DNA of 32,000 nt from Longivirga aurantiaca (GCF_042660085.1 NZ_JBHSTI010000008.1:1149876-1181875), one strand, 5' to 3'; numbered from the stretch's first letter, positions 1 through 31,252 are shown. The notes: generated from the sequence alone by a model not told the origin. Program-made: numbers and translations.

Positions 1-10
1 ACCCGGGTAA
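1..10 (+). repeat. 3' end of one copy of the interspersed 50-nt core repeat, truncated by the window edge
   Basis: The sequence acccgggtaa is identical to the last 10 nt of the cores ending at 13550, 19690 and 19752. It lies in the same orientation and is intergenic, just upstream of recQ. Confidence 0.45.
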
Positions 11-3069: not shown

Positions 3070-4695
3070 TCAGGACCGCGGCTCCCACCGGAAGGTGCGC
3101 CACGCGACCGCCGCGGCCGCGAGGCCCCACAGCGCGATGACGCCCAGGTGCCCCCACCACGCCGTGCCGAGCCCCTGCCCGGAGCTGGCCGCCACGGTGA
3201 GAGCCGCCATGTGCCGCAGCGGGAACGTCCAGCCGATCGCCGACATGACCGTGGGCAGGCCCGGCGAGTTCACGAAGATGTCCGAGACCATCGACAGCGG
3301 GAGCAGCGTCACGAGGGCGACGGCCGTCACGCTCTCCGGCGACTCGATGAGGCTGGCCAGCAGGAGGCCCAGGGCGGTGAGGCAGGCGATGACCGCCGCG
3401 AACGCGAACGCGGTCACCACCACCGCAGCCGGACCCACCCGAACGCCGAAGAGGACCGCGCCGACGGCGAAGACCGCCACGACGGTCGCCGCACCGAGGA
3501 GCGCCGCCGCGCCGATGCGACCCGCGAGGTACGCGCTGGACGGGAGCGGGGTGCCGCGAAGTCGCTTGAGCACGAGTCGGGATCGGTCGTCGGCAAGCGT
3601 CGAGGGCAGGGAGACATAGGCCATCACGGCGACGCCGTACACGGCGAGCGCGGGGGCGAGGTACTGCGGCAGCGGCAGCCCGCCCCAGGTGGCCTCGCGC
3701 CCGTAGACCGCGGAGAAGAAGACCAGCAGCAGGACCGGGAAGACGATGGCGAAGAAGACCGCCAGCGGGTCGCGCAGCAGCTTCACCGCGGTGAACCGCG
3801 TCTGCCCCCAGGCGAGACGCCACCACGACGGCGCGCCGACGTCGGTAGCGGGCCCGAGCGTCACGGGGACGGGGACGGGGGCGGGCGCGGAGCGCGTGGG
3901 GACGGCGCCCGTGCTGATCGCGCCGCGGCGGGACCGGTGCTCCCGGGACGGGTGCGGCTCCCAGGTGAAGAACCGGAGCGCCACGAGCGCACCGGCCGTG
4001 CCCCACGCGAGCATGACCGCGAGGTGGCCCCACGCAGGGCCGTTGTCGGCCAGGAACGGGTTGAAGCCGTCCGCCACCGCGTTCACGAAGTGCTTGAGCG
4101 GGAAGAACCAGCCGACCTGGGCGAGCCACTGCGGCAGCTGCACCACGAACACGTCGGAGATGAACGCCAGCAGGATCAGGCAGCCGTTGGCCAGCGCCTG
4201 GGTCGCGGCAGGGGTCGGCGCGATCGACACGAGCGCGAGACCCAGCGCGGCGAAGCACGCCACACCGACCACGAAGGTCAGCACGACGGCCGGCAGCGTG
4301 CGCCAGACGATGTCCACGTCGTACGCCACGACTCCCACCACGGTGACGACGGCGAAGGCGAGCAGCGACACGTACACCGCCGAGGCCACGCGGCCGGCGA
4401 GGTGCACCCAGGGAGGGAGCGGGGTCGAGCGCAGCCGCTTGAGGACACCGGCCTCGCGTGCGTAGGCGACGCCGAGCGCCAGCGAGACGAAGGCAGCCAT
4501 GCAGGCGCCGAACACGGCGAACACCGGGACGAGGAACTGCGCGAAGCGCACGCCGGACCTGTCGCTGATCGTGGCGTTTCCGGCGATGGCGCAGACCACC
4601 ACGACGAACGACACCGGGAACACGAGCGTGAAGAACGCGGCGACCGGCGTGCGCCAGAAGCTCCTGGTGGCGTATCGGAACTGGCTGCGGAGCAT
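3070..4695 (-). CDS. ABC-2 type transporter permease, a tandem fusion of two ABC-2 membrane domains
   Basis: I take the ATG at 4695 as the start (MLRSQFRYATRSFWRTPVAAFFTLVFPV...). An alternative GTG at 4767 overlaps the ATPase stop in the string GTGACTGA. The second half restarts with the same signature (WGQTRFTAVKLLRDPLAVFFAIVFPV...) after a Pro/Arg-rich linker. About 12 hydrophobic segments are visible. Confidence 0.85.
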   Translation of the reverse strand: MLRSQFRYATRSFWRTPVAAFFTLVFPVSFVVVVCAIAGNATISDRSGVRFAQFLVPVFAVFGACMAAFVSLALGVAYAREAGVLKRLRSTPLPPWVHLAGRVASAVYVSLLAFAVVTVVGVVAYDVDIVWRTLPAVVLTFVVGVACFAALGLALVSIAPTPAATQALANGCLILLAFISDVFVVQLPQWLAQVGWFFPLKHFVNAVADGFNPFLADNGPAWGHLAVMLAWGTAGALVALRFFTWEPHPSREHRSRRGAISTGAVPTRSAPAPVPVPVTLGPATDVGAPSWWRLAWGQTRFTAVKLLRDPLAVFFAIVFPVLLLVFFSAVYGREATWGGLPLPQYLAPALAVYGVAVMAYVSLPSTLADDRSRLVLKRLRGTPLPSSAYLAGRIGAAALLGAATVVAVFAVGAVLFGVRVGPAAVVVTAFAFAAVIACLTALGLLLASLIESPESVTAVALVTLLPLSMVSDIFVNSPGLPTVMSAIGWTFPLRHMAALTVAASSGQGLGTAWWGHLGVIALWGLAAAAVAWRTFRWEPRS

Positions 4696-8029: not shown

Positions 8030-10672
8030 GTGGGCGGCTCCCACCCACCGAGCGACGGCCTGCCGGCCGTCGCGATCCTCCCCGTGGACGTCGACCCCGC
8101 CGGGCTGACGTCGCTCGAAGCGGCTCGCCGCCTCGAGGAGGCCGGCCGCAACGAGATCGAGCAGCGGGGCCGCGTCACCGTCTGGGCCGGGGTCGGGCAG
8201 CAGCTGCGCGACCCGCTGATCGTCGTGCTGCTGGCGGCCTGCCTCCTCACGATCGTCACCGGCGACCTGACCGACGCCGCCGTCATCGCGCTCGTCGTGG
8301 TGGCCAACACCGTCATCGGCGTGTGGCAGGAGATCAAGGCCGACAAAGCAGTCACGGCGCTGGCGGCGCTCACGTCGCCGTCGGTCCGCGTTCGCCGGGA
8401 CGGATCAGAGACGTCGGTGCCGTCGCCCGAGCTCGTCTGCGGCGACGTGGTGCTCCTGGGCGAGGGCGACATCGTGCCGGCCGACGCCCTGCTGCTCGAG
8501 GCGTCGTCGCTCCTGGTCGACGAGTCGAGCCTCACGGGGGAGTCGGTCGCGGTCGGCAAGCGTGCGCCGCACGGCGAGCACCCGGGCGAGGAGCTGTCGT
8601 CGGGCACCGTCGTCGTGAAGGGTCGTGCGGTCGCCGCCGTCACCGCCACCGGTGCCTCCAGCGCGCTGGGGCGGATCGCCGCGCTCATGGACACGAGCGC
8701 CCACGCCACGCCGCTGCAGATCCGGCTGGCCTCGCTCGGTCGCGTGCTCGCGCTGGTGGTGGTGGCGCTGAGCCTGGTCGTGATGCTGCTCGGGCTCGCC
8801 CGCGGCGAGCCGCTGGAGGTCATGCTGCTGACCGCCGTCAGCCTCGCCGTCGCCGCGGTGCCGGAGTCGCTGCCCGCCGTGGTCACCGTGGCGCTGGCGC
8901 TCGGTGCCCGCCGCATGGCCGAGTCGAACGCGATCGTGCGCAGGCTCTCCGCCGTCGAGACGCTCGGGTCGGTGAGCGTCCTCGCCACCGACAAGACGGG
9001 GACGCTGACGCAGGCCCAGATGCTCGTCGAGGAGATCTGGACCCCGCACCGCCGAGTCGGGGTCTCCGGCAACGGCTATGAGCCCGAGGGCGAGCTCGTC
9101 GAGGCCGGCGCGCGGCTGGCGACGTCCGGTGCAGCGGACGTCGTCGAGCTGCTGCGGGCCGCCGTGCTCTGCAACGACGCCACGCTCGTCCCGCCCGACG
9201 GTCCGGACGGCACGTGGTCCGGGCTCGGCGATCCGACCGAGTGCGCGCTGCTCGCGGCCGCCGGCAAGGCCGGGCTCACCCGCGAGTCCCTCGAGCGCCT
9301 GCACCCCCGGGTTGCCGAGGTGCCGTTCGACAGCGCGCGCCAGCGGATGTCGACGGTGCACGCGCTCGATCCCGACCACCCCGAGCAGCTCCTCGTGGTC
9401 ACCAAGGGGTCCGTGGAGGCCCTGCACGCCGTGCACGGCCCCGGGGCGCACCCGGTCGTGTGGCACGAGGCGCTCACCGCCGCGGCCGAGCTCTCGGCGT
9501 CGGGCTTCCGGGTGCTCGCGCTCGCCGCGGGGACCTGCCACGACGGCCGGTGGGAGCACGCCGAGCAACGGCTCCTCGGCCTCGTGGCCATGAACGACCC
9601 GGCGAAGCCGGCAGCCAGGGCGACGCTCGAGGCGTGCCGCGCCGCAGGCATCACGCCCGTCCTCATCACCGGGGACCACAGGGAGACCGCCAACGCCGTC
9701 GCCCTCGACGTCGGAGTGCTCGACGCAGGCGCCGATTCGGGCGGCCTCGTCGTCGTGACCGGTCCGCAGATCCTCGCCGGCGAGGTGCCCGACCTGACCG
9801 TGCCGCGCGTCTTCGCCCGGACGTCGCCGGAGCAGAAGCTCGACATCGTCCAGGCGTGGAAGGATCGCGGCGCCGTGGTCGCGATGACGGGGGACGGCGT
9901 CAACGACGGCCCTGCCCTGCGGCGCGCGGACATCGGCGTCGCGATGGGCCACCGCGGCACCGAGGTAGCGCGGCAGGCCTCGGACCTCGTGCTCGCCGAC
10001 GACGAGCTCGGCACGGTGGTGACGGCGGTTCACGAGGGACGGCGGGTCTACGACAACATCCGCCTCTTCCTCGTCTTCGGCCTCGCGGGCGGCGCCGCCG
10101 AGATCCTCGTCATGCTCCTCGGCCCGTTCTGCGGCCTGACGGTGCCGCTGCTCGCGGCGCAGATCCTCTGGATCAACCTCCTGACTCACGGCTCGACCGG
10201 CGTCGCCCTCGGCAGCGAACCCGCAGCGCCGGGGACCATGCGGCGAGGTCCGCGGCCCCCGGAGCAGAGCGTGCTCGGCGACGGGCTGTGGCAGCGCGTC
10301 CTCGAGATCGCGGTGGTGATCGGCACGGTCACGCTCGGCCTCGGGCTCTGGGCGGAGGGCACCGGCCGCGAGTGGCAGAGCATGGTGTTCCTCGCCCTGG
10401 TGAGCCTGCAGCTCGGCGTCGCGGTCGGCCTGCGTCCGCGCCAGCTCACGACGAGCAACCTGATGCTGCCCGTGACGGTCGCGCTATCGGCGGTGCTCGC
10501 GCTCGCGGGCGTCTACCTGCCGGTGCTGGCCGACATCCTCGGCACCGTCCCCCTGCCGCCCGCCGATGCCGCGCTGGCGGTGTCGACCGCGGTGATCGGC
10601 TGGCTCGCCAGCCGGGTCACCGGCTGGGTCCAGGTACGTCGCCGTGGCCCGACTCATCAGCAGCAGCCCTGA
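8030..10672 (+). CDS. Cation-transporting P-type ATPase (P2/Ca2+-Mg2+-type, HAD superfamily)
   Basis: It has TGES (SLTGESVAV), a PESLP motif in TM4, the phosphorylation site DKTGTLT, and the hinge MTGDGVNDGPAL. I chose the GTG at 8030 as the start because GGGGAGG lies 10 nt upstream. The ORF opens at a TTG at 7982, which remains an alternative. Confidence 0.9.
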   Translation: MGGSHPPSDGLPAVAILPVDVDPAGLTSLEAARRLEEAGRNEIEQRGRVTVWAGVGQQLRDPLIVVLLAACLLTIVTGDLTDAAVIALVVVANTVIGVWQEIKADKAVTALAALTSPSVRVRRDGSETSVPSPELVCGDVVLLGEGDIVPADALLLEASSLLVDESSLTGESVAVGKRAPHGEHPGEELSSGTVVVKGRAVAAVTATGASSALGRIAALMDTSAHATPLQIRLASLGRVLALVVVALSLVVMLLGLARGEPLEVMLLTAVSLAVAAVPESLPAVVTVALALGARRMAESNAIVRRLSAVETLGSVSVLATDKTGTLTQAQMLVEEIWTPHRRVGVSGNGYEPEGELVEAGARLATSGAADVVELLRAAVLCNDATLVPPDGPDGTWSGLGDPTECALLAAAGKAGLTRESLERLHPRVAEVPFDSARQRMSTVHALDPDHPEQLLVVTKGSVEALHAVHGPGAHPVVWHEALTAAAELSASGFRVLALAAGTCHDGRWEHAEQRLLGLVAMNDPAKPAARATLEACRAAGITPVLITGDHRETANAVALDVGVLDAGADSGGLVVVTGPQILAGEVPDLTVPRVFARTSPEQKLDIVQAWKDRGAVVAMTGDGVNDGPALRRADIGVAMGHRGTEVARQASDLVLADDELGTVVTAVHEGRRVYDNIRLFLVFGLAGGAAEILVMLLGPFCGLTVPLLAAQILWINLLTHGSTGVALGSEPAAPGTMRRGPRPPEQSVLGDGLWQRVLEIAVVIGTVTLGLGLWAEGTGREWQSMVFLALVSLQLGVAVGLRPRQLTTSNLMLPVTVALSAVLALAGVYLPVLADILGTVPLPPADAALAVSTAVIGWLASRVTGWVQVRRRGPTHQQQP

Positions 10673-11380: not shown

Positions 11381-11914
11381 GTGACAGACATGCGGCACGA
11401 GGAGATCACCGTTCACGAGGCGCCTCCGCGTCAGCGGTCGGCGCTCGTCTGGTGGCTGGCCGGCGGCCTGGTCGTCGCGCTCGCCGCCCTGATCGGTCTG
11501 GGCGTGTGGGGGTACTCGACGTACGCGATGACGGCGCAGGAGCAGGCAGCCGTCGCCGTCGTCCAGGACCACATCGACGCCACCAACGCCGCGGATCTCG
11601 CCGCGCTCGACGCGACGATGACCAGCGACATGCTGTGGACGGCCTACGCGAACGGCGAGGTCGCGGCCGGGCCGCTCAAGGGGCAGGAGTACATCGACTT
11701 CGTGAAGAGCACGGTGCCGACCTTCGTGATGACCCAGCTCGGCCCGATGACGGTCTCGAGCGACGACTTCACGAAGATCACCGCCGTCTCGGTCCCCATG
11801 CACGTCACCATCTCGAACATCGGCGCGGATGAGACGGGAACATCCGTCTTCTACGTCCACGTCGTGGACGGCACCCCGCAGATCACCCAGATGGTCTGGC
11901 TGACCCTGTCGTAG
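11381..11914 (+). CDS. Membrane-anchored NTF2/SnoaL-like protein
   Basis: High-GC3 coding is confined to the 3' third of the 395-aa ORF. I chose the GTG at 11381, which is 8 nt after GGAGG (11368-11372). The ATGs at 11390 and 11324 are alternatives. There is one TM segment (ALVWWLAGGLVVALAALIGLGVW) followed by an NTF2-like fold signature (AVAVVQDHIDATNAADLAALDATMTSDMLW). Confidence 0.65.
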   Translation: MTDMRHEEITVHEAPPRQRSALVWWLAGGLVVALAALIGLGVWGYSTYAMTAQEQAAVAVVQDHIDATNAADLAALDATMTSDMLWTAYANGEVAAGPLKGQEYIDFVKSTVPTFVMTQLGPMTVSSDDFTKITAVSVPMHVTISNIGADETGTSVFYVHVVDGTPQITQMVWLTLS

Positions 11915-11930
11915 TGCCTCGACCGTCCCT

Positions 11931-11961
11931 GGTGCCCGGTCGCGCTCGGCGACCGGGCACC
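11931..11961 (+). terminator. Perfect 13-bp GC stem-loop
   Basis: ggtgcccggtcgc (11931-11943) is the reverse complement of gcgaccgggcacc (11949-11961), with a 5-nt loop. It starts 17 nt after the stop at 11914. Confidence 0.5.
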
Positions 11962-12056
11962 AAGGACGCGGTGACACGTGAGTGGCGGGACGGGCGTGCG
12001 GCGATGGCGGCACGGCGGCCCGGTACCGTTCCGGCATCCGTCCGGAAGAGGTCTCC

Positions 12057-13427
12057 GTGTCCGTCGATCAACGCCTGGCCGAGTTGTCGGCCGCCCTGCC
12101 CGGCGACGTCGTCGTCACCGACGCCGAGCGCACCGACAAGTACCGCTGGGACCGCGCGAACGACCCGCGGGCCGGTGTGCCGCTGGCTGTCGTTCGAGCG
12201 GAGTCGACCGAGCACGTGCAGACCGCGGTGCGGTGGGCGGCGAAGCACGGCGTGGCCGTCGTACCGCGTGGTGCCGGCACCGGCCTCTCGGGTGGTGCGA
12301 GCGCCATCGACGGGTGCCTCGTGATCTCGACCGAGCGGATGCGGGCGGTGGAGATCGACCCGCTCACGCGCATCGCGTACGTCGAGCCCGGGCTGCTGAA
12401 CGCCGAGCTCAAGGCCGAGGCCGCACGGCACGGGCTCTGGTATCCGCCGGACCCGTCGTCGTACGAGATCTGCTCCATCGGCGGCAACATCGCGACGAAC
12501 GCCGGCGGCCTGTGCTGCGTGAAGTACGGCGTGACCACCGACTACGTGCTCGGCCTCACCGTGGTGCTCGCGGACGGTACGGCGGTGGAGCTCGGCGGGC
12601 CGCGGCTCAAGGACGTGGCCGGCCTGCCGCTGACGAAGCTGTTCGTCGGGAGCGAGGGCACGCTCGGGATCGTCACGCGCATCGTGCTGCGGCTGGTGCC
12701 GGCGCAGCGCACGCCGTCGACCCTGGTGGCGACGTTCGCCTCGCTCGACGACGCGACCGCCGCGGTGCTCGCGATCTCGAGCCGGATGCGGCCGTCGATG
12801 CTGGAGTTCATGGACCGCGCGTCGATCAACGCGGTCGAGGACATGACGCGGATGGGCCTCGACCGGTCGGCCGAGGCGCTGCTCGTGGTGCAGTCGGACG
12901 AGCCGGCGTCATACGCCGCTGCGGAGATCGCCGAGGTCGGTGCGCTGTGCGACGCCCACGGCGCGACCGAGTGGTTCTCGACCGACGACCCGGACGAGGG
13001 CGAGCAGTTCGTGGTCGCCCGCCGCTCGGCGATCCCGGCTCTCGAGCTGAAGGGCGCGCTGCTGCTCGAGGACGTCGGCGTGCCGCTGCCGCGGCTGGGC
13101 GAGCTCGTGCGCGGGATCGAGGCGATCAGTGCCGACCACGAGGTGCTGGTCGCGGTGGTGGCGCACGCCGGTGACGGCAACACGCACCCGCTCGTGGTGT
13201 TCGACCCCGCGGACGCCGCTGCCACTGCTCGGGCGCAGACGGCGTACGACGCGATCATGCGGCTCGCGATCTCGCTCGACGGCACGATCACGGGCGAGCA
13301 CGGCGTGGGGCGGATGAAGCAGCCGTGGCTGCGCGACTACCTCGGCGCCGACGTGCACGCGCTCAACCGGCGCATCAAGGACGCGCTCGACCCCCAGGGC
13401 ATCCTCAACCCCGGCGCGGGCATCTGA
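12057..13427 (+). CDS. FAD-linked oxidase (GlcD / D-lactate dehydrogenase family)
   Basis: I chose the GTG at 12057, after ggaagagg. It has an FAD_binding_4 pattern (AVVPRGAGTGLSGGA...GGNIATNAGG) and a C-terminal FAD-oxidase domain (GTITGEHGVGRMK...DPQGILNPG). Confidence 0.9.
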   Translation: MSVDQRLAELSAALPGDVVVTDAERTDKYRWDRANDPRAGVPLAVVRAESTEHVQTAVRWAAKHGVAVVPRGAGTGLSGGASAIDGCLVISTERMRAVEIDPLTRIAYVEPGLLNAELKAEAARHGLWYPPDPSSYEICSIGGNIATNAGGLCCVKYGVTTDYVLGLTVVLADGTAVELGGPRLKDVAGLPLTKLFVGSEGTLGIVTRIVLRLVPAQRTPSTLVATFASLDDATAAVLAISSRMRPSMLEFMDRASINAVEDMTRMGLDRSAEALLVVQSDEPASYAAAEIAEVGALCDAHGATEWFSTDDPDEGEQFVVARRSAIPALELKGALLLEDVGVPLPRLGELVRGIEAISADHEVLVAVVAHAGDGNTHPLVVFDPADAAATARAQTAYDAIMRLAISLDGTITGEHGVGRMKQPWLRDYLGADVHALNRRIKDALDPQGILNPGAGI

Positions 13428-13438
13428 CGGTCGGCGCC

Positions 13439-13550
13439 CTAGCCGGGTGGCGATTCCGTCGCAGAGCGCACGCTGGCTACCCGGGTAAGCCGAGGACGCG
13501 GTAGGTGAGTGGTGAATCCGTCGCAGAGCGCACGCTGGCTACCCGGGTAA
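13439..13550 (+). repeat. Array A of the 62-bp-period interspersed repeat (2 units)
   Basis: The cores are 13439-13488 (ctagccgggtggcgattccgtcgcagagcgcacgctggctacccgggtaa) and 13501-13550 (gtaggtgagtggtgaatccgtcgcagagcgcacgctggctacccgggtaa). The array lies between the convergent stops at 13427 and 13567. Confidence 0.9.
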
Positions 13551-13566
13551 CGCGGCGGCGGGATCG

Positions 13567-14430
13567 CTAGGGCGTGGCCCAGGTGTCGAGCCAGGTCTCG
13601 ATGGGCTCCTGGACGACGCCGACGGCGATCACGCTCATGTGGTCCTCGCCCGCGAGCACGTCGAGCTCGACCGGGATGCCGGCATCCTCCAGCGCGCTGG
13701 CGAACGACCGCGACTGCGACAGCGGCACGACGTCGTCGCCGTCGCCGTGGATCAGCAGCACCTGCACCGTCGACGGCGCGGCACCGGTCTGCACGTAGTG
13801 GATCGGGTCGCCCGACTCCCAGAGCGCCACGTCGTCGGCGCGCGGCGTGCCGAACCAGTCGGCCATCATCGGCTGGAACGTCTGGGTGTCGTAGATCCCC
13901 GCGAGCCCCACCACGCCGGCGATCTCCGGGATCGGGTCGGCGCACGGGCGGGCGAGCGTCGTACCCGACACGGCCGCGAGCGCCGCGAGATGCCCGCCGG
14001 CCGAGTGGCCGACGAGCACGACCGGCCCCGGCTTGGGCTCGGACCTCGAGGCGAGCGCTGCGGCGTACGCCGTGGAGCAGAGGACGTCCTGCAGCGACGC
14101 CGGGAAGCCGATGCCCTCGTTGCCCGCGCGGTACTCCGTGGTCGCGACGAGGTAGCCGGCGTCGGACAGGCCCGTCGCGAGCGGCATGAACCCGGTGCTG
14201 TCGTGGCTCTGCCAGCCGCCACCCGGCACCAGCACGATGAGCGGCACCGTCGGTCGCGCGGGGACGGCGACGGGGGAGTAGAGCGTGGTGGTGAGCGAAG
14301 GGTCGAACGTCGACGGCGACGGGCTCGGCGGCGGTGGCGTCGTCTCGAGCGGCCCGGTCGACGACTGGCTGCAACCGGTCAGCAGCAGCGCGAGCGCGGC
14401 CCCGGCGATCCAGCGCGTGCGCATCCCCAT
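13567..14430 (-). CDS. Alpha/beta hydrolase lipoprotein (esterase/lipase family)
   Basis: The signal peptide carries a lipobox (ALALLLTGCSQ). The nucleophile elbow is GHSAGG, and LIHGDGDDVVP has the C-terminal Asp/His region downstream of it. Confidence 0.85.
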   Translation of the reverse strand: MGMRTRWIAGAALALLLTGCSQSSTGPLETTPPPPSPSPSTFDPSLTTTLYSPVAVPARPTVPLIVLVPGGGWQSHDSTGFMPLATGLSDAGYLVATTEYRAGNEGIGFPASLQDVLCSTAYAAALASRSEPKPGPVVLVGHSAGGHLAALAAVSGTTLARPCADPIPEIAGVVGLAGIYDTQTFQPMMADWFGTPRADDVALWESGDPIHYVQTGAAPSTVQVLLIHGDGDDVVPLSQSRSFASALEDAGIPVELDVLAGEDHMSVIAVGVVQEPIETWLDTWATP

Positions 14431-14636
14431 GCCCGCATCCTCGCGCAGGACCGCCGGAGGTCGCAGGCGCGCCGCCGCGGCGACCCAGCGAGGTCGTCCG
14501 GACGCACCGCGTCACCAGCGCCCGGGCGGCGGCGTCTGGGCGCGACTCAGCCGCGCGAGAGCGCTAGGAAGGGAGTAGTTACGCGGCGCTGTCGGGGTGT
14601 CGGCCTCCGCGCCGTGAGCGCGAGGAGGCGAGTCCG

Positions 14637-15092
14637 GTGTCGTACGTGGTCACGGTCGAACGGGTCGAGGAGCAGCCAGCTGCGGTGGTGCACGGCCGGG
14701 TGGACGTCGACGACCTCCCGGAGTTCCTCGGGCGCGCGTTCGGAGACGTCCTGCGCACCCTGGCGACCCAGCACCTGCATCCGGTCGGCCCGCCGTTCGG
14801 CCGCTACCAGGTCGATGGCGACGTGTTCGAGGTCGAGGCGGGGTTCCCGTGCGACGGGGTCCCGACCCCGGTCGGCGACGTCGAGCCCTGCACGCTGCCG
14901 GGAGGCGAGGTCGCCACGACGCTGCACACCGGCGACTACCAACGGATCGGGGCGGCCTACCAGGCCGTCGCCGAGTGGATGGGCGAGCACCACTGGCAGA
15001 TCGCCGCAGCACCCTGGGAGTCGTACGTCGACGACCCGACGGTCCTCGAGCCGCGCACGATCGTGCGCTTCCCGGCTCGGCGGGCCAGCTAG
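14637..15092 (+). CDS. GyrI-like small-molecule-binding domain protein
   Basis: The GTG start lies 8 nt after GAGGAGG. The 151-aa pattern (VERVEEQPAAVVHGRV...EVEAGFP...LPGGEVATTLHTGDYQRIGAAYQAVAEWMGEH) is typical of GyrI-like/AraC-effector-binding folds. Confidence 0.8.
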   Translation: MSYVVTVERVEEQPAAVVHGRVDVDDLPEFLGRAFGDVLRTLATQHLHPVGPPFGRYQVDGDVFEVEAGFPCDGVPTPVGDVEPCTLPGGEVATTLHTGDYQRIGAAYQAVAEWMGEHHWQIAAAPWESYVDDPTVLEPRTIVRFPARRAS

Positions 15093-15114
15093 CGGCCGTG
15101 GAACGGAGGGCGTG

Positions 15115-16002
15115 ATGGACGCGAGGCAGCTCGAGAGGATGCGGGACGGCGCCGGCTTCATCGCCGCGCTGGACCAGAGCGGCGGGAGCACCCCGCGAGC
15201 ACTGGCGCTCTACGGCCTCGACCAGACGACGTACAGGACCAGCATCGAGATGCTGGCGCTCGCGCACAGGATGCGCACGCGCATCGTCACCAGCCCGGCC
15301 TTCACCGGCGAGCGGATCATCGGGTCGATCCTCTTCGGCGACACGATGGAGAGGCACGTGGAAGGCATGGGCACCGCCGAGTACCTGTGGCACGTCAAGG
15401 AGATCGTGCCCTTCCTCAAGGTCGACCACGGCCTCGAGCCTGAGGAGCACGGGGTGCGTCTGATGCGCAGGATCCCCGATCTGGACCGCGCCCTCGACAA
15501 GGCCCTGGGACACGGGGTGTTCGGCACCAAGATGCGCTCGGTCGTCGTCAGCGCCGATCGCCCGGGCATCGAGGCAGTCGTCCGTCAGCAGTTCGAGTTC
15601 GCCCGCCGGATCCTCGACGCCGGGCTCGTCCCGATCATCGAGCCCGAGGTCGACATCCGCAGCCTGCAGAAGGAGGCGGCGGAGGACCTGCTGCGCGAGT
15701 ACCTCCTGCACGCCCTCGACATGCTCGGGGACGACGACCGCGTGATGCTCAAGCTGACGCTGCCCGAGGTGGACGACTACCACGCGCCGCTCGTGGCGCA
15801 CCCGAACGTCCTGCGCGTCGTGGCCCTGTCGGGCGGCTACAGCCGTGCGGAGGCGGTGGAGAGGCTCGACCTGCAGCACGGGGTGATCGCGAGCTTCTCG
15901 CGGGCGCTCACCGAAGGCCTGCGCGTCGAGCAGACCAAGGCCGAGTTCGACGCCGCGCTGCACGAGTCGGTCGAGAGCATCTACCGCGCGTCGTTGACCT
16001 GA
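15115..16002 (+). CDS. fda: Class I fructose-bisphosphate aldolase
   Basis: It is near-colinear with my recollection of the Gram-positive class I Fda proteins. Shared segments include GFIAALDQSGGSTPRAL, FGTKMRS, PIIEPEV, the Schiff-base context VMLKLTLP, VVALSGGYSR and ASFSRAL. The ATG at 15115 follows GGAGGG. This is the 3' part of the long 787-aa ORF. Confidence 0.92.
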   Translation: MDARQLERMRDGAGFIAALDQSGGSTPRALALYGLDQTTYRTSIEMLALAHRMRTRIVTSPAFTGERIIGSILFGDTMERHVEGMGTAEYLWHVKEIVPFLKVDHGLEPEEHGVRLMRRIPDLDRALDKALGHGVFGTKMRSVVVSADRPGIEAVVRQQFEFARRILDAGLVPIIEPEVDIRSLQKEAAEDLLREYLLHALDMLGDDDRVMLKLTLPEVDDYHAPLVAHPNVLRVVALSGGYSRAEAVERLDLQHGVIASFSRALTEGLRVEQTKAEFDAALHESVESIYRASLT

Positions 16003-16799
16003 GGCGTCCTGGTGTCGTGGACGTCGTACGCGAGGGACCGGAGCGTGAACTCGCCGTACGCGAACGGGCCGTCCGGGCGCTCGTAGAGCGCTGATCCCTG
16101 GGTGGCGACGCGTACGCCGTCGGCCATCGGGCGGTAGCCGGCGAGCGGCGTGCGCCACCGCATCGGCACGAACGTGCCCGTGCTGCTGTCGGGGCGGTCG
16201 TCGGACCAGAAGTCGGCGAGCAGGCCGTCGTCGCCGAAGACGAGGGTGGCGGCGACGGTGTGCGGGCCGTTGGTGAAGGTGACGCGCGCGCTGCGGTCGT
16301 CGACGGCGTCCCACGCGAGACGCGGGTCGACCAGCGCGCCCGGTGCCAGCACGCACATGTCGTTGAGCACCGTGACGGTCTCGGCGCGGCTGATCTCGGA
16401 GCCGGACAGGTCGACCATGTCGACGAGCGAGGCGACGCGCACGCGGAAGGTCGCGTGCTCCTCGCGGTAGAGGTGCAGCGCGCGCACCGGCAGCCCGAAC
16501 ATCCTGGCGTCCATGAGGAAGAGGCGCGTCGGACGGTCGAAGAGGTTGTACTGCACCGACGTCGACCGCATCGGCCTCGCGCCTGGCGCACGCCGCATCG
16601 CGGCGTCGAACTCGACGCGCATGCTCTGCGGCGCAGGGCGTCCGAGCGCACCTGTCTCGCGGAGGTAGCGGCGTACGGGGTCGGGGAGGGGCGCGATCGC
16701 CTCCTCGTCGAGCGGCGGTCCGATGGTGGGCTCGAGGGTGTCGAGCTCGTGCGCGACGGCGGCGTCGAACTGCTGCCGGAGGTCGATCCGGATGGTCAT
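15981..16799 (-). CDS. Conserved hypothetical protein (DUF6544-like by recollection)
   Basis: I take the ATG at 16799, preceded by GGAGGTGCGCG; it forms a 4-nt ATGA overlap with the upstream membrane-protein stop. GC3 is high. The family assignment is from memory of the PDPVRRYL ... W(R/K)TP pattern. Confidence 0.7.
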   Translation of the reverse strand: MTIRIDLRQQFDAAVAHELDTLEPTIGPPLDEEAIAPLPDPVRRYLRETGALGRPAPQSMRVEFDAAMRRAPGARPMRSTSVQYNLFDRPTRLFLMDARMFGLPVRALHLYREEHATFRVRVASLVDMVDLSGSEISRAETVTVLNDMCVLAPGALVDPRLAWDAVDDRSARVTFTNGPHTVAATLVFGDDGLLADFWSDDRPDSSTGTFVPMRWRTPLAGYRPMADGVRVATQGSALYERPDGPFAYGEFTLRSLAYDVHDTRTPQVNDAR

Positions 16800-17188
16800 C
16801 GCGCACCTCCGACCAGCGTGTGCGAGCGGTGCGACAGCGCGAGCGCGCCGAGGCCCAGGAGGATGACGACGTCGATCACAGCGCCGGCGGCTGCGGCGGG
16901 CAGCGCGAGCAGGCACGCGACGAGCGAGAGAGCGGCGAGGGCGGCCGTGAGCGGCAGGGCCCATGCGGAACGGCGTACGACGCCGACACCCGCCACCACG
17001 AAGCCCACGGCGAGGGCGAGCCATACGGCTCCGACCACGCGCATCCCGGTGGCGCCGAGGTCTGCACCGAGGAGATCGGTGCGGTAGGGGAAGCCGTCGA
17101 GCGTGGCGAGCTGCCACGGGACGACGAACCCGATGAGGTGGATGAGGCCGTGCGCTGCAAGGGCTGCACCGGCCAGGACGCGCATCAT
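16796..17188 (-). CDS. Small integral membrane protein (4 predicted TM segments)
   Basis: 130-aa hydrophobic ORF (HGLIHLIGFVVPW...). The RBS GGAAG lies 7 nt upstream, and the gene starts 13 nt downstream of the marR stop. Confidence 0.65.
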   Translation of the reverse strand: MMRVLAGAALAAHGLIHLIGFVVPWQLATLDGFPYRTDLLGADLGATGMRVVGAVWLALAVGFVVAGVGVVRRSAWALPLTAALAALSLVACLLALPAAAAGAVIDVVILLGLGALALSHRSHTLVGGAR

Positions 17189-17201
17189 GACGTGCTTCCT
17201 T

Positions 17202-17681
17202 TCATCGGTCGTGCGTCGCGCCGGGGTGCTCGGGGGCGAGAGCCGCGAGCCAGGCGCGGGTGAGGTCGCGCAGTGCGAGGACGTCGCCCCGCGGTACGCC
17301 GTCGAACGCCGTCCCGAGCAGGGCGCGCGACCGCGCGACGCCCTCGGGCGAGTCGAACCGGCGTACCTGCTCGGTGACGGTGATCCGGGTGGTCCGCGCG
17401 TCGGCGGGGTCGGTCTCGAGCCGCACCCAGCCGCGCTCCTGGAGGCCGAGGGCGATCTGCTTCACGTTCTGCCGCGAGCTGCCGTAGCGCTCGGCCGCCT
17501 CGCTGAGCGACGGGGAGCGGTCGGGGAACGCCGAGGTGAGGACGGCGAGCAGCAGCCACTGCCGGGTGGTGAGACCCCAGTCGTCGAGCGCGGCGTCGGC
17601 GCGGCGGGTGAGGTGCTGGGCCAGGACGAACAGGGTGCCGAACGCCTCGGCCTGCGCCTGCTCCAGCTCGATGTCGGCCAT
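17202..17681 (-). CDS. MarR family transcriptional regulator
   Basis: 159 aa with a winged-HTH core (LTTRQWLLLAVL...PSLSEAAERYGSSRQNVKQIALGLQERGWVRLETDPADARTTRITVT). Confidence 0.9.
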   Translation of the reverse strand: MADIELEQAQAEAFGTLFVLAQHLTRRADAALDDWGLTTRQWLLLAVLTSAFPDRSPSLSEAAERYGSSRQNVKQIALGLQERGWVRLETDPADARTTRITVTEQVRRFDSPEGVARSRALLGTAFDGVPRGDVLALRDLTRAWLAALAPEHPGATHDR

Positions 17682-17682
17682 G

Positions 17683-17700
17683 TGCGTAATATATTACGCA
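17683..17700. promoter_or_regulatory. Perfect 18-bp AT-rich palindrome: candidate MarR operator overlapping -10-like hexamers
   Basis: TGCGTAATATATTACGCA is its own reverse complement. It abuts the marR ATG (17681) and is the most AT-rich spot in the window. It contains TAATAT and TATATT (TANNNT) on both strands. Confidence 0.6.
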
Positions 17701-17856
17701 TATGGCCCGGCGGGAAGGGGGCGGCGGCGTGAGCCGCGTCTCGTCGGGCCTCGCCCAGGTCGCGGGAGCGCCGACCACGGGCGAGGATGCAGGCACGGCC
17801 GCGTCGCGGCCCGCCGGGTGCCCGGACCTGGACTCGACGACCTTCGCAGGAGAGTC

Positions 17857-18432
17857 ATGCGCGCCCGACTTCCTCTCGCCGCCACGGCCCTCGCCCTCGC
17901 TGCCGTGCTCAGCGGCTGCAGCAGCCACTCGTCCGACATGGCCGGCGGCACGGCCGCGATCGTGGCGGGTCAGCAGGGCGACATCGCCTTCGCCCAGCTG
18001 ATGATCCCGCACCACGAGCAGGCCGTGGAGATGGCCGACCTCGCCCTCGAGCGCGAGACCTCGCCGGAGGTGAAGGCCCTCGCCGAGCAGATCAAGGGTG
18101 CGCAGGACCCCGAGATCGAGCAGATGACCGCGTGGCTCGCCGCATGGGGCGCGCCCACGCAGATGCCCGGCGTCGAGCACAGCGGCGACCACGCGGGGAT
18201 GCCCGGGATGATGAGCGACGACGACATGTCCGCGCTGGCCGATGCACAGGGTGCGGCGTTCGACGAGAAGTGGCTGACGCTCATGATCGCCCACCACGAG
18301 GGCGCCCTCACGATGGCGCAGCAGGTGCTCGGCACGACCACCGATGCCGAGGTGCGCACGCTCGCGGAGGCGGTCGTCGCCGGCCAGAAGGCCGAGATCA
18401 CCGAGATGACGGCGCTGCTCGCCCGCGCGTAG
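17857..18432 (+). CDS. DUF305 family lipoprotein (four-helix-bundle, metal/copper-associated family)
   Basis: I take the ATG at 17857, after AGGAGAG. It has a lipobox (ALAAVLSGCSS) and a duplicated DUF305 signature (FAQLMIPHHEQAVEMA and WLTLMIAHHEGALTMA). Confidence 0.88.
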   Translation: MRARLPLAATALALAAVLSGCSSHSSDMAGGTAAIVAGQQGDIAFAQLMIPHHEQAVEMADLALERETSPEVKALAEQIKGAQDPEIEQMTAWLAAWGAPTQMPGVEHSGDHAGMPGMMSDDDMSALADAQGAAFDEKWLTLMIAHHEGALTMAQQVLGTTTDAEVRTLAEAVVAGQKAEITEMTALLARA

Positions 18433-18602
18433 CTGAGTGGCGAATCCGTCGTAGAGCGCACCCTCGTTACCCGGGTACATCGGCGACGGCGTAGCTGAGT
18501 GGCGACTCCGTCGTAGAGCGCACCCTCGTTACCCGGGTACATCGGCGACGGCGTAGCTGAGTGGCGACTCCGTCGTAGAGCGCACCCTCGTTACTCGGGT
18601 AG
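18429..18602 (+). repeat. Array B of the 62-bp-period interspersed repeat (3 units)
   Basis: The cores start at 18429, 18491 and 18553 (gtagctgagtggcgaMtccgtcgtagagcgcaccctcgttacccgggta) and are separated by the linker (c)atcggcgacggc. The third unit has ttactcgggta. The TAG stop of the DUF305 gene (18430-18432) lies inside unit 1. Confidence 0.92.
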
Positions 18603-18703
18603 GCAGGCGCCGGTGTCCGAGGTGTCCACAGCTGGCGGTGAGCGGCGCGTCGTCCACGTGCGGAGGCTGAGCCCGGCCGCGTACGTCGTACCGCCCCGTC
18701 AGC

Positions 18704-19648
18704 GTGCGCGGCATGACCGGACGCACGCACGCCCTCGACCTCGTCCCCGGCCTGCGGGAGCTGGCCCGCGCCCAGCTCGGCGTCGTACGCCGCGATCAGC
18801 TGCGCGAGCTCGGCGTCGGACATCAGCATGTGCGCCGTCAGGTGCAGGCGGAGCGGTGGCGTGCGATCGGGCCGCACGCCGTGGTGCTGCAGACCGGTGC
18901 GCTGTCCCGTCGGCAACGGCTCAGCCTCGGCGCTGTGCACGCCGGTCCGGGCAGCGAGCTCGACCTGTGGTCGGCGCTGGAGCACGCCGGACTCCGCGGG
19001 TGGGAGAGGTCGGCGGTGCACGTTGCGGTGCCACGAGGCAGGCGGGTTGCGCGGCTGGACGGGGTGGTCGTGCGTCAGGTGTCAGCTCGACCGCCGGCTG
19101 CCGTGGACGGCCCCTGGCCGCCCGCCGCACCGCAAGCGAGGGCCGCGGTCGAGGCTGCGTGCCTCGAGCGCACCGACACGTCGGCCGCCGGGCTGCTCGT
19201 TGCGGTGGCGCAGCAGCGGGTCGCGACCCCCGAGGCGATGCGCCTCGAGCTCGACCGGCTCTGGCGGCCGCGACGCGCTCCGCTGTTGCGCGCTGCGCTC
19301 TACGAGGCGGGTGCCGGCTCGGAGTCCGTCGCCGAGATCGACGTCCTCCTGCTGGTGCGGCGGGCCGGGCTCCCCGAGCCTCGGCGGCAGGTGCTCGCGC
19401 TGACCCCGGATGGCGTGGAGAAGCTCGACCTCGTGGTCGACCTGCCGGACGGGCGCACCCTGGTCATCGAGGTGGACGGACCGCACCACGACGACTCGAG
19501 CCGGCGGGCAGGGGACGCGGCGCGGGACGCTGCCCTCATCGCTCTGGGCTACCTGGTCCTGCACATCCCGGTGATCGAGATCCGCACCGACCCGGCCGGC
19601 GTCGTACGGCGACTGCGCCGCATTGCGCAGGCTGCACGCGCTGGCTGA
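18704..19648 (+). CDS. DUF559 endonuclease-like domain protein with an AbiEi-like N-terminal region
   Basis: 314-aa ORF with a GTG start. The C-terminal DUF559/Vsr-like pattern is DLVVDLPDGRTLVIEVDGPHHDD...DAARDAALIALGYLVL. The N-terminus (LGVVRRDQLRELGVGHQHVRRQV) resembles the HTH of AbiEi-type proteins. Confidence 0.8.
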   Translation: MRGMTGRTHALDLVPGLRELARAQLGVVRRDQLRELGVGHQHVRRQVQAERWRAIGPHAVVLQTGALSRRQRLSLGAVHAGPGSELDLWSALEHAGLRGWERSAVHVAVPRGRRVARLDGVVVRQVSARPPAAVDGPWPPAAPQARAAVEAACLERTDTSAAGLLVAVAQQRVATPEAMRLELDRLWRPRRAPLLRAALYEAGAGSESVAEIDVLLLVRRAGLPEPRRQVLALTPDGVEKLDLVVDLPDGRTLVIEVDGPHHDDSSRRAGDAARDAALIALGYLVLHIPVIEIRTDPAGVVRRLRRIAQAARAG

Positions 19649-19752
19649 GTGGCGATTCCGTCGTGGAGCGCACGCTCGTTACCCGGGTAACGCAGGGCTT
19701 CGATAGGTGAGTCGGGATTCCGTCGTGGGGCGCACGCTCGTTACCCGGGTAA
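19641..19752 (+). repeat. Array C of the 62-bp-period interspersed repeat (2 units)
   Basis: The cores are 19641-19690 (ctggctgagtggcgattccgtcgtggagcgcacgctcgttacccgggtaa) and 19703-19752 (ataggtgagtcgggattccgtcgtggggcgcacgctcgttacccgggtaa). The TGA stop of the DUF559 gene (19646-19648) lies inside unit 1. Unit 2 ends 6 nt before the convergent apbE stop. Confidence 0.9.
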
Positions 19753-19758
19753 CGGGCG

Positions 19759-20559
19759 TCAGGTGAACGCGGGGCCGAAGAACTCGGCGCGGCCGTCCTT
19801 GACGAGGTAGACCGACCACTCGGGCAGGCCCACGAACCAGCGGTTGCAGGTGGGGCCCTCGACGAGGCACGCGGTGGCGAGGGCGTCGGCGAGGCCGGCG
19901 TCGGGGCCGACGACGGTCGCGCTGTCGTAGTGGACGCCGAAGTCGCCTGTCACGGTGTTCGCGATGTGCGAGCCACGCTCGTAGAGGCCGCTCGTCGCGA
20001 CCGCCCAGCCGTCGGGCACCGTCACCGCGCGGATCACCGACTGCGTGTCGTACGGGTTCGTGATGCCCACGGTCCACAGCTCGCCGGGCGACTGGAAGCC
20101 GCGGCAGGCGATGTCGCCGGAGGCGTTCACGCACACGTTCGGCACACCGCATACGACGAGGAGGTCGGCCACCACGCCGGCCGCCCAGCCCTTGACGTAG
20201 CCGCTCGGGTCGACGCCGCCGCGCACGGCCCACGGGTCGAACACGCCGTCAGTCAGCGCGCGGGCGCCGGCGCATGCGTCGAGCACCGTCCGCACGATCG
20301 ACGGCAGCCTGAACTCCTCGAGCAATCCGTTGCGGTACATCGTGATCGGGGTGTCGGCGCGGTACGTCGAGAACCACGCGTCGACCTGGTGCAGGTACGC
20401 CACGGCGTCGTCGACGATCGAGTCGATCCCGGTCGTCAGCACGGGCGCACGCAGGTCGAGCACCACGTGGGTGCCCCACACCGGCTCGACGTGGATCCTC
20501 TGCTCCCACGCACCGGGACCGGCGTACGAGACGAGGCCGTCCGTGCCGAGCCCGGTCAC
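19759..20559 (-). CDS. apbE: FAD:protein FMN transferase (ApbE family)
   Basis: 266 aa with ApbE-like segments (VDAWFSTYRADTPI, GVDPSGYVKGWAAG, AVATSGLYERG, DALATA). The GTG start overlaps the upstream stop (GTGA). Confidence 0.88.
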   Translation of the reverse strand: MTGLGTDGLVSYAGPGAWEQRIHVEPVWGTHVVLDLRAPVLTTGIDSIVDDAVAYLHQVDAWFSTYRADTPITMYRNGLLEEFRLPSIVRTVLDACAGARALTDGVFDPWAVRGGVDPSGYVKGWAAGVVADLLVVCGVPNVCVNASGDIACRGFQSPGELWTVGITNPYDTQSVIRAVTVPDGWAVATSGLYERGSHIANTVTGDFGVHYDSATVVGPDAGLADALATACLVEGPTCNRWFVGLPEWSVYLVKDGRAEFFGPAFT

Positions 20560-30457: not shown

Positions 30458-31252
30458 GTGCACGCATCCGACCACCGGTGCCCCGAGCCGAGACGTCCCT
30501 CCCCGCTCGGGGCACCGGCGCGCGTGGCCGGGCAGGCGGGGGCCGAGGAGGTGCGGCTCGTGCTCGTGCTCGACGGTGGTGGCGAGCGCGTGCTCGTCTT
30601 CCTCCCCGGCTTCATGACCGCTGCCGAGTCGTACGTCGAGGTGCTCACCCCGGTCGCCGACGCGGGGGTGACCGTGCTGGTGCCGCAGCTGTACCGCCGC
30701 GGCGTCGGCGCGCTGGCGGGCCGGGTGCCGGTCAGCTCCGAGGCCTCGGCCGCCGCCGACCTCGTCCGGGTGACCGCGGCCGAGCGCGGCACCCCGCTCG
30801 TGCACCTCGGCGGCCACTCCCGGGGCGGTCAGGCCGCGTGGCGCGCAGCCGCGCTGCTCGCGGCGGAGGGTCTTCCCGCCGGGCTCGTCGTCATCGATCC
30901 CGTGGACGGCGCCGGCCGTCGTCCGACCGAGGCCGACGCCACCGCGGAGCCGGCCGCGTTCGACGTCCGCACGCTCGTGATCGGCGCCGGGCTCGGCGGC
31001 CGCTGCGCGCCGGAGGCGGTCAACCACGCGGTCTTCGCCGCGGCCGCACCCTTCGCCCAGCACGTCCTGGTCACCGGCATGGGTCACGTCGACCTGCTCG
31101 ACGACCGGCCGCGGGCGCTCGCCCGCCGGCTCTGCCCCGGTGGGCCGGACCCCGACAGCGCGCGCACGTCGGTGTCGGCCCTGCTCGTCGCGTTCCTCGC
31201 CGGGACGCCCCTGCCCGCGCTCGACGGCGCCGTCGAGGTGCTCCAGGCCTGA
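30458..31252 (+). CDS. Alpha/beta hydrolase (chlorophyllase/dienelactone-hydrolase-like)
   Basis: It has the nucleophile elbow GHSRGG, then VIDPVDG and GMGHVD. The start is uncertain: GTG at 30458, 30524 or 30551. Confidence 0.65.
   Translation: MHASDHRCPEPRRPSPLGAPARVAGQAGAEEVRLVLVLDGGGERVLVFLPGFMTAAESYVEVLTPVADAGVTVLVPQLYRRGVGALAGRVPVSSEASAAADLVRVTAAERGTPLVHLGGHSRGGQAAWRAAALLAAEGLPAGLVVIDPVDGAGRRPTEADATAEPAAFDVRTLVIGAGLGGRCAPEAVNHAVFAAAAPFAQHVLVTGMGHVDLLDDRPRALARRLCPGGPDPDSARTSVSALLVAFLAGTPLPALDGAVEVLQA

Follow-up and report, generated by a model that had tools for sequence, protein, structure and literature searches.

What are the short repeats that sit at the 3′ ends of genes in a 32,000-nt stretch of the Longivirga aurantiaca genome (GCF_042660085.1, NZ_JBHSTI010000008.1:1149876-1181875; the whole stretch is called the window below), and are they connected to the nuclease gene that lies between two of their arrays? 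An original prediction had described seven full units with a 62-bp period and one copy cut by the window edge at 1-10, all on the + strand, and on direct reading of the window every one of these coordinates and counts holds (Table 1). The full units form arrays of two, three and two (A, B and C), inside which the spacing is exactly 62 bp. We favour an explanation that, taken as a whole, we regard as probable. The window units would be a lineage-specific, partly decayed branch of a superfamily of hairpin repeats resembling repetitive extragenic palindromes (REPs), present in Longivirga (Sporichthyaceae) and related uncultured actinomycetes. The propagated unit would be the whole 62 nt, a 50-nt imperfect palindrome with a loosely conserved 12-nt tail, and its spread to new loci a past event. 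By analogy with REPs, the repeats would act as 3′-end RNA stem-loops that were once, or still are, mobile.

The conserved apical core of the palindrome is CCGTCGYRGAGCGC. A degenerate core pattern, TCCGTCGNNGNGCGCAC, has seven exact matches in the window, every one of them inside units, and 13 matches when up to two mismatches are allowed, compared with 3.85 ± 1.89 expected; 0 of 100 shuffles reached 13. An nhmmer profile built from the units recovered all seven (E 1e-16 to 2e-20) and no further copy anywhere in the window, and Tandem Repeats Finder reported array B (period 62, 2.8 copies, 98% matches, score 336), with arrays A and C below its threshold. The blocks TCCGTCG, GCGCAC and CGGGTA, for which invariance had been claimed, are identical in all seven units. 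Units were also said to resemble each other more within arrays than between them, which is borne out by core identities of 92.8% and 83.1%, respectively; most of this excess is owed to array B (94-98%), as A1/A2 and C1/C2 are each 88% identical, and the linkers of B1 and B2 are identical, again as predicted. The evidence on copy number in the source genome is indirect and consists of four arrays in 32 kb and short-read contigs that end inside arrays.

Each full-unit array of the window starts at, or no more than 12 nt from, the stop codon of a co-oriented gene, which agrees with the proposed placement at the 3′ ends of + strand genes and, for arrays A and C, at convergent junctions. Array A begins 12 nt past the stop of the FAD-linked oxidase gene (13427) and finishes 5 nt short of the stop of a convergent BD-FAE hydrolase gene (13567). 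Array B begins at the TAG stop of the DUF305 gene, the TAG lying in the head of unit B1, and is followed by the DUF559 nuclease gene. The TGA stop of the latter lies inside unit C1, so that array C starts over it; at the other end, its second unit extends with its tail over the stop of a convergent ApbE gene (19759-19761). Loci retrieved from related genomes (L001 and so on; L014-L023 were retrieved via DUF559 proteins) allowed this arrangement to be compared more widely. All six independent assessable window-type arrays are co-oriented with the upstream gene and start 0-35 nt from its stop; in each case the downstream gene is co-directional or convergent, and none of the six occupies a divergent gap. 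Because the units stand at or just after co-oriented stops in such gaps, they would be transcribed within the 3′ untranslated region (UTR). The transcribed units could then form GC-rich 3′-end stem-loops that terminate transcription or shield the mRNA from exonucleases, as do REPs and bacterial interspersed mosaic elements (BIMEs), and by this analogy a 3′-UTR stem-loop affecting termination or mRNA stability is the most likely role.

A partial unit head (CTAGG.../TCAGGTGAA) ends the arrays at window positions 13567-13580 and 19759-19767 and at L001 7050-7060, where the convergent gene has its stop codon in, or overlapping with, this partial head. This may be a chance likeness or microhomology that seeded array growth. 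The same bases are native gene ends in relatives that have no array, and therefore permit no conclusion on target-site duplication at the array ends.

The assignment of the units to a hairpin superfamily comes from comparison with these relatives. In contigs with a DUF559 ortholog of 71% identity, the same sites are occupied by a repeat of type iv, GTAGCTGTGTGGCGATCGCG-TCGCAGGGAG-CGCGTTCGCCGTACAGCTAC, which is a near-perfect 19-bp hairpin (fold z −5.6, −3.4 and −2.6) with one copy upstream of DUF559 and two downstream spaced 62 bp. Sister types occur in other genomes: type ii (CCTCATGAYGATCCGCG-TCGYNGAGAG-CGCGGATCGTCTTGAGG), type K (ACCTGGGTGGCGATTCCGTCGCAGAGTGGTCGGATCGCCACCCAGGT, with at least nine copies in 13 kb of L019) and type iii (an array at L010 1638-1800); fold z ranges from −5.6 to −2.4 across types iv and ii. 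A MAFFT alignment of the sister types with the window units has the invariant core CG.CG..G.G.G, and the conserved core of the superfamily reads CGTCGYRGRG. Across the five types, 68.6% of helix cells are paired, compared with 29-47% when the alignment is slid as a control, and eleven pairs are altered on both sides; covariation scores 0.232, whereas shuffles give 0.165 ± 0.015 and 0 of 500 scored as high. A covariance model, R1, was trained on 17 hairpins with no window-type unit among them and was searched against 179 kb. In the window its matches were confined to the seven units, all of which it recovered (E 8e-5 to 0.044), at 13436-13492 (E 0.0012) and 13498-13555 (E 0.0048) in array A and with E values of 8e-5 to 7e-4 in array B. 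Taken together, the sister-type hairpins, the covariation and the recovery by R1 argue that the window units are a decayed branch of this superfamily.

In the window type, G-C pairs have become G-U pairs through C-to-T and A-to-G changes in the 3′ arm, and an A-C mismatch is found in most copies. G-U and A-C cells number 53 and 21 in the window type, where the copies are not independent, versus 33 and 37 in the other types, and this asymmetry was discarded as an indicator of the folding strand. In type iv the GTAG head is base-paired to CTAC, and in types K and ii GAAC stands in its place. A loose scan for core-containing hairpins, combining a regular expression with folding, was set aside as too unspecific. 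In L019 (391-7001), K-type hairpins occur singly or in twos, ~81-96 bp apart, in nearly every intergenic gap along 7 kb, all on the gene strand except for an inverted one downstream of DUF559.

Several observations weigh against the stem-loop explanation. Single window units fold no better than shuffles (z −0.4 to +1.1), and neither does the whole of array B (z = +0.22). RNAalifold, run on the window type, yielded neither a consensus structure (−1.4 kcal/mol) nor compensatory pairs, and the 13-pair imperfect helix formed by columns 2-15 with 36-49, in which 80% of cells pair with three G-U pairs included, has no covariation beyond shuffles; a conserved RNA structure within this type was accordingly rejected. 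These null results mean that an RNA stem-loop role in Longivirga would have to be played by an imperfect stem. A simple scan of 13000-20200 found no terminator-like site and no U-tract, which also disposes of a canonical intrinsic terminator, and the units are followed by G+C-rich linkers. Conservation of the core could result from gene conversion instead of function. Finally, hairpins of the superfamily also occur upstream of genes in divergent gaps (L010 1638-1755; L016 121-178 and 2194-2250; L019 391-531), unlike what a pure 3′-end role would predict.

That the family is interspersed beyond the window had been proposed, and a distribution scan supports this. A strict 23-base pattern was run against 185,579 species representatives, the source genome not being among them, and matched two genomes, both metagenome-assembled genomes (MAGs): the 'Candidatus Nanopelagicales' MAG JBBQAY01 at five places and the uncultured actinomycete MAG CAWJMG01 at two. 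In these two MAGs the window-type family occurs at sites orthologous and non-orthologous to the window, and arrays in the related loci comprise 1-4 units, always with periods of 61-63 bp. One JBBQAY01 contig is syntenic with the window and reads DUF305, three units, DUF559, four units plus a partial one, and a convergent ApbE gene. The array C site thus holds two units in the window versus four plus a partial one in the MAG, whereas the array B site holds three in each. In the MAG, unit L1c matches L1d exactly in columns 1-36 and L1b exactly in columns 19-52. Its 5′ half is thus that of L1d and its 3′ half that of L1b, which records a 62-bp tandem duplication via unequal crossover or slippage. 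Arrays gain and lose units through unequal crossover or replication slippage between neighbouring units, in keeping with the local expansion that had been suggested.

Between the window and the MAG, unit cores are 74-94% identical (92-94% in array C), linkers 45-67%, the DUF559 leader 83%, and third codon positions of the flanking genes 76-78%. On this comparison of sequences the unit cores appear to be kept above the near-neutral level, through either selection or conversion. Logan short-read contigs from the same or related strains terminate inside units (L009 end 4458-4501; L014 at both ends), as is expected of a multi-copy repeat, and one base of unit A2 is changed in L009 relative to the window (GGTTAC vs GGCTAC). 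At the position of array A, between the FAD-oxidase and BD-FAE hydrolase genes, L010 has an extra 446-aa gene and a frame-broken DUF559 pseudogene (11422-13452), which are bounded by three type ii hairpins. Array A could be the footprint of a module of this kind, but the hairpin type differs.

The nuclease gene between arrays B and C encodes a protein that is 100% identical, over 311 residues, to one from Longivirga aurantiaca. It has an AbiEi-like N-terminal domain, recognized by Pfam, PADLOC and fold comparison, and a C-terminal Vsr-type nuclease domain. E208, D239, E253, D255, H259 and D268 are invariant or nearly so among 20 homologs. An AlphaFold model of the window protein (predicted local distance difference test score, pLDDT, 88) matches the folds of 6y8q, 3hrl, I-Bth0305I (3r3p), the restriction-like endonuclease (RLE) domain of R2, and TnsA, with template modelling (TM) scores normalised to the target of 0.73-0.75 for 3r3p and 3hrl. 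The C-terminal DUF559 domain thus has the same fold as Vsr-like nucleases such as I-Bth0305I, the R2 RLE domain and TnsA of Tn7; the likeness to these structures is one of fold only, at 11-24% identity. The present gene differs from them in having no intron, intein or transposon context and in its AbiEi-like N-terminal domain.

The association of this gene family with the hairpins was assessed for every DUF559 paralog in the retrieved loci by looking for matching repeats within 330 nt upstream and 200 nt downstream. Matching hairpins flank 10 of 12 DUF559 genes on both sides, compared with 4 of 90 other genes (Fisher p = 3e-9); the retrieval of L014-L023 via DUF559 does not bias this comparison, although its independence is limited, since some of the genes are orthologs. 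The flanking hairpins belong to at least five types; the two of a module match each other, and the type differs between paralogs. The downstream hairpin begins at or inside the DUF559 stop codon. The upstream hairpin lies 70-200 nt before the start, is followed by a leader with CGTCGTCCAC or a close variant, and is kept even where the upstream neighbour is divergent (L016 121-178 and 2194-2250). Flanking copies are direct in most modules and inverted in L019 and L023. The CGTCGTCCAC motif or its close variants recur ~40-90 nt upstream of DUF559 paralog starts in several genomes (L010 about 8890-8910; L014 about 8435-8445; L016 about 2288-2298; the L021 leader) and may be a promoter, an operator or a 5′-UTR element.

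Table 1. Positions of the repeat arrays, the genes beside them and further DUF559 genes with matching hairpins; window coordinates unless an L-number is given.
Feature	Position	Strand	Remarks
Cut unit	1..10	+	ACCCGGGTAA, unit 3′ end, equal to alignment columns 41-50; recQ start at 72, 62 nt downstream
FAD-linked oxidase gene (glycolate oxidase-like)	11982..13427	+	Array A at 3′ end
Array A, two 62-bp units (13439, 13501)	13439..13562	+	Direct reading; pattern and nhmmer matches; R1 matches
DUF305 gene	17536..18432	+	Stop codon inside unit B1
Array B, three 62-bp units (18429, 18491, 18553)	18429..18614	+	Direct reading; Tandem Repeats Finder; pattern, nhmmer and R1 matches
Leader, array B to DUF559 ATG (18713)	18615..18712	+	CGTCGTCCAC at 18648-18657
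AbiEi-like winged helix-turn-helix (wHTH) + DUF559 (Vsr/RLE-type PD-(D/E)xK) nuclease gene	18713..19648	+	Pfam, PADLOC AbiEi; between arrays B and C
Array C, two units (19641, 19703)	19641..19764	+	Direct reading; pattern and nhmmer matches
Other DUF559 genes with matching hairpins	L016 269-1210, 2353-3294; L010 4315-5181, 8984-9898; L003 2283-3200		
Other DUF559 genes with matching hairpins (continued)	L019 6001-6942; L021 3001-3957; L023 3001-3942		

The link to the nuclease recalls that between REPs and their associated tyrosine transposases (RAYTs), here with another class of enzyme, but the AbiEi-like domain having operator sites in the repeats could account for it equally, as could capture of the genes at recombination-prone repeats. 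In the explanation that we favour, crossover or slippage between adjacent 62-bp units would change array size, and the best candidate agent of dispersal would be the AbiEi-DUF559 gene module, with which the hairpins are associated and which may have caused their spread. A stronger claim would be that the hairpins are the ends or non-autonomous partners of a selfish element, REP/RAYT-like or homing-type, whose enzyme is the AbiEi-DUF559 nuclease: this would recognise and cut the hairpin or cruciform, the repeats would be copied or moved, and the arrays would have no host function. The flank statistics speak for this, as do the matching of each pair of hairpins within its own module across at least five types, the persistence of the upstream hairpin beside a divergent neighbour in L016, and the dispersed solo copies, which in the window, the MAG and L019 are mostly of the type that flanks a DUF559 gene there. 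The putative catalytic residues are invariant, the C-terminal fold is that of the mobile-element nucleases named above, and the paralogs are multi-copy, one of them decayed in L010. However, no insertion or excision event was caught in the loci compared, and inheritance of the orthologous arrays is stable from species to species. Several arrays (L004, L006) are kilobases away from any DUF559 gene, the type iii array in L010 has no DUF559 partner in the DNA examined, and a mixture of direct flanks with inverted ones in L019 and L023 defines no single end architecture. We therefore consider a selfish element conceivable but doubtful. A similarly tentative standing is given to the proposal that the hairpins and AbiEi-DUF559 form a cognate pair, in which the Vsr/RLE-type nuclease recognises its own hairpins and generates or maintains the dispersed copies and arrays.

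The same gene module raises an alternative in which the DNA duplex matters and RNA does not: the palindromes would be operator sites for the AbiEi-like winged-helix domain, serving autoregulation or titration, and the arrays would be multimerised sites. AbiEi binds inverted repeats in its own promoter, and the N-terminal domain of the DUF559 protein matches AbiEi; an upstream hairpin precedes each DUF559 start, and outside the window type G-U and A-C cells are balanced, as for a duplex palindrome. Operator sites would not explain the copies that lie straight after the stops of unrelated genes far from DUF559 (array A, L002, L004-L006), the steady co-orientation with upstream genes or the conserved asymmetric core, and we regard this alternative as unlikely. 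The poor folding of the window units, the lack of covariation within their type, the variable copy number and the chimeric units would all suit a pure minisatellite of the kind formed by mycobacterial interspersed repetitive units (MIRUs), with neutral units spread via duplication and gene conversion and the hairpin a functionless relic. This, too, seems quite improbable, as the cores are more conserved between species than linkers or third codon positions, orientation and position relative to stop codons are non-random, the same core is retained across five hairpin types, and MIRU-style in-frame small open reading frames (ORFs) are impossible in these units, 62 not being a multiple of 3 and stops occurring in all three + frames within two units. 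The notion that the units encode a small structured RNA or derive from a tRNA is largely refuted and hardly credible. It draws on the strand bias of the units and on a visual likeness of the 5′ part, with its head TAGCTGAGTGG...TAGAGCGCAC, to a D-arm; ARAGORN found no tRNA or tmRNA, an Rfam search relaxed to E 10 brought up no match, no promoter-like site (sigma-70) was found in a scan, structure is not conserved within the window type, and the head is not conserved in sister types, where it becomes GAACCTGGGTG.

The repeats are best placed by comparison with two kinds of known element, and here the original prediction of an organisation like that of REPs and BIMEs or of MIRUs and other variable-number tandem repeats (VNTRs) is supported as a likeness. 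In the survey of Di Nocera et al. (2013, PMC3733652), GTAG- and CGTC-tagged REPs of Proteobacteria are 20-40 bp long, are found mainly 3′ of ORFs and presumably function as RNA hairpins; their dimers are mainly head-to-head or tail-to-tail and only rarely head-to-tail. Like REPs and BIMEs, the present repeats are short imperfect palindromes that are intergenic, mostly downstream of ORFs between co-directional or convergent genes, often clustered, probably transcribed as RNA hairpins, and divided into species-specific families within a superfamily. The stem-loop is clear in the superfamily and weaker in the window type (80% of cells paired, fold z about 0), and the downstream position is found in all six independent assessable window-type arrays. 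They differ in size, with a palindrome of 50 nt and a propagated unit of 62 nt versus 20-40 bp, and in layout, being head-to-tail with periods of 61-63 bp, whereas REP clusters alternate in orientation. They also have no unpaired GTAG or CGTC end tag, since GTAG is paired or replaced by GAAC and CGTC lies in the apical core, and their host phylum, Actinomycetota, is absent from the survey.

The REPIN-RAYT systems (Bertels and Rainey 2011, PMC3116915; Nunvar et al. 2010, PMC2817692) resemble the present modules in that a single-gene nuclease or transposase locus is bracketed by a repeat type that is dispersed elsewhere in the genome, and in that different paralogs pair with different repeat types. 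Here, however, the flanked gene encodes an AbiEi-wHTH domain with a Vsr/RLE-type PD-(D/E)xK nuclease rather than an HUH Y1 transposase, the flanks are mostly direct instead of inverted, the genes are multi-copy, and mobility is a candidate property. Among the window genes scanned, none had a transposase or integrase domain. The MIRU-VNTR loci were compared by organisation and described features, not by sequence. They share with our arrays a host among the Actinomycetota, direct tandem units of 40-100 bp at many intergenic loci oriented with adjacent genes, and copy number that varies between related genomes, here at the array C site. The MIRUs of Mycobacterium tuberculosis reportedly lie within operons and contain small ORFs that overlap the flanking stop and start codons (described, it is said, by Supply et al. 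in 1997 and 2000). The present arrays differ in having a period that is not a multiple of 3, a palindromic unit, and two arrays (A and C) at convergent junctions. The family probably works like REPs and BIMEs, is organised like MIRU-VNTRs, and is a member of neither as defined.

The family had been presented as undescribed, and no match was found in Rfam, among plasmids and phages, or in the literature. Rfam 15 gave no match in the window at the gathering threshold and only chance miRNA matches at relaxed E values, none of them in one region. BLAST searches of plasmids and phages with the units gave no match, no published paper was found that contains the core sequence, and the literature on DUF559, Longivirga or AbiEi with palindromic repeats yielded nothing relevant. 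The single match from a pattern scan of metagenomes, L008, lies inside a coding region and was dismissed as chance. A CRISPR array was rejected because the linkers are 12 nt long and repeated (B1 = B2) and no Cas domain occurs in the window genes scanned. GTAG was likewise discarded as a RAYT-type tag, being base-paired in type iv and replaced in types K and ii, and a pairing of the invariant TCCGTCG with the linker (CGACGG in array B) was seen by eye in some arrays only and is absent in terminal units.

The analysis goes beyond the original prediction in three respects: it identifies the unit as a decayed imperfect palindrome of a wider hairpin superfamily, includes the 12-nt linker in what is propagated, and connects the repeats with AbiEi-DUF559. 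Knowledge of REP-like repeats is extensive for Proteobacteria and much more limited for high-G+C actinomycetes. Here, a hairpin repeat has been caught at several stages of decay across related genomes, with conservation that appears to exceed the near-neutral level, and its head-to-tail arrays of fixed period link REP-type to MIRU/VNTR-type organisation. The repeat family itself is solid but unsurprising. The part that could matter is the statistically strong association with a widespread, uncharacterised family of AbiEi-DUF559 nucleases whose fold is common to homing and transposon nucleases. The agent that spreads RAYT-less classes of REP is not known (Di Nocera et al. 2013, PMC3733652); if the cognate-pair proposal were true, it would name an enzyme class for REP-like repeats without a RAYT and provide an actinomycete counterpart of REP/RAYT. 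In practical terms, short-read assemblies break at the arrays, which could be used as VNTR markers.

Further hairpins were noted in the same DNA. Close relatives without the 62-bp family carry another hairpin family with outer stems TTGGATGC...GCATCCAA (L010 4055-4110, 5152-5205, 8801-8860 and 9897-9948; L013 247-304, 1611-1666 and 3060-3120; L014 1428-1478; L020 5878-5931; L023 11-69). Its outer arm GCTGGATG resembles the window-unit arm GCTGAGTG, and R1 matches two copies weakly. The JBBQAY01 MAG has an additional abundant family of long hairpins, CTGATCAATCCGTCGYTTCC...GGAARCGACGGATTGATCAG, with 24-33 pairs (L004 6621-6695; L005 2723-2781, 4578-4634 and 5869-5925), the stem of which has the string AATCCGTCG in common with the window unit. 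In the window itself, strong unrelated hairpins of 20 pairs each lie at 11924-11968, 14 nt upstream of the start of the FAD-oxidase ORF, and at 30473-30520. An inverted repeat with 14-bp arms and an AT-rich centre, GGCCATGTGCGTAATATATTACGCATATGGCC, at 17676-17707 lies at the 5′ end of a MarR-family gene and in the 5′ portion of the DUF305 reading frame at its longest (17536-18432); it is probably a MarR operator.

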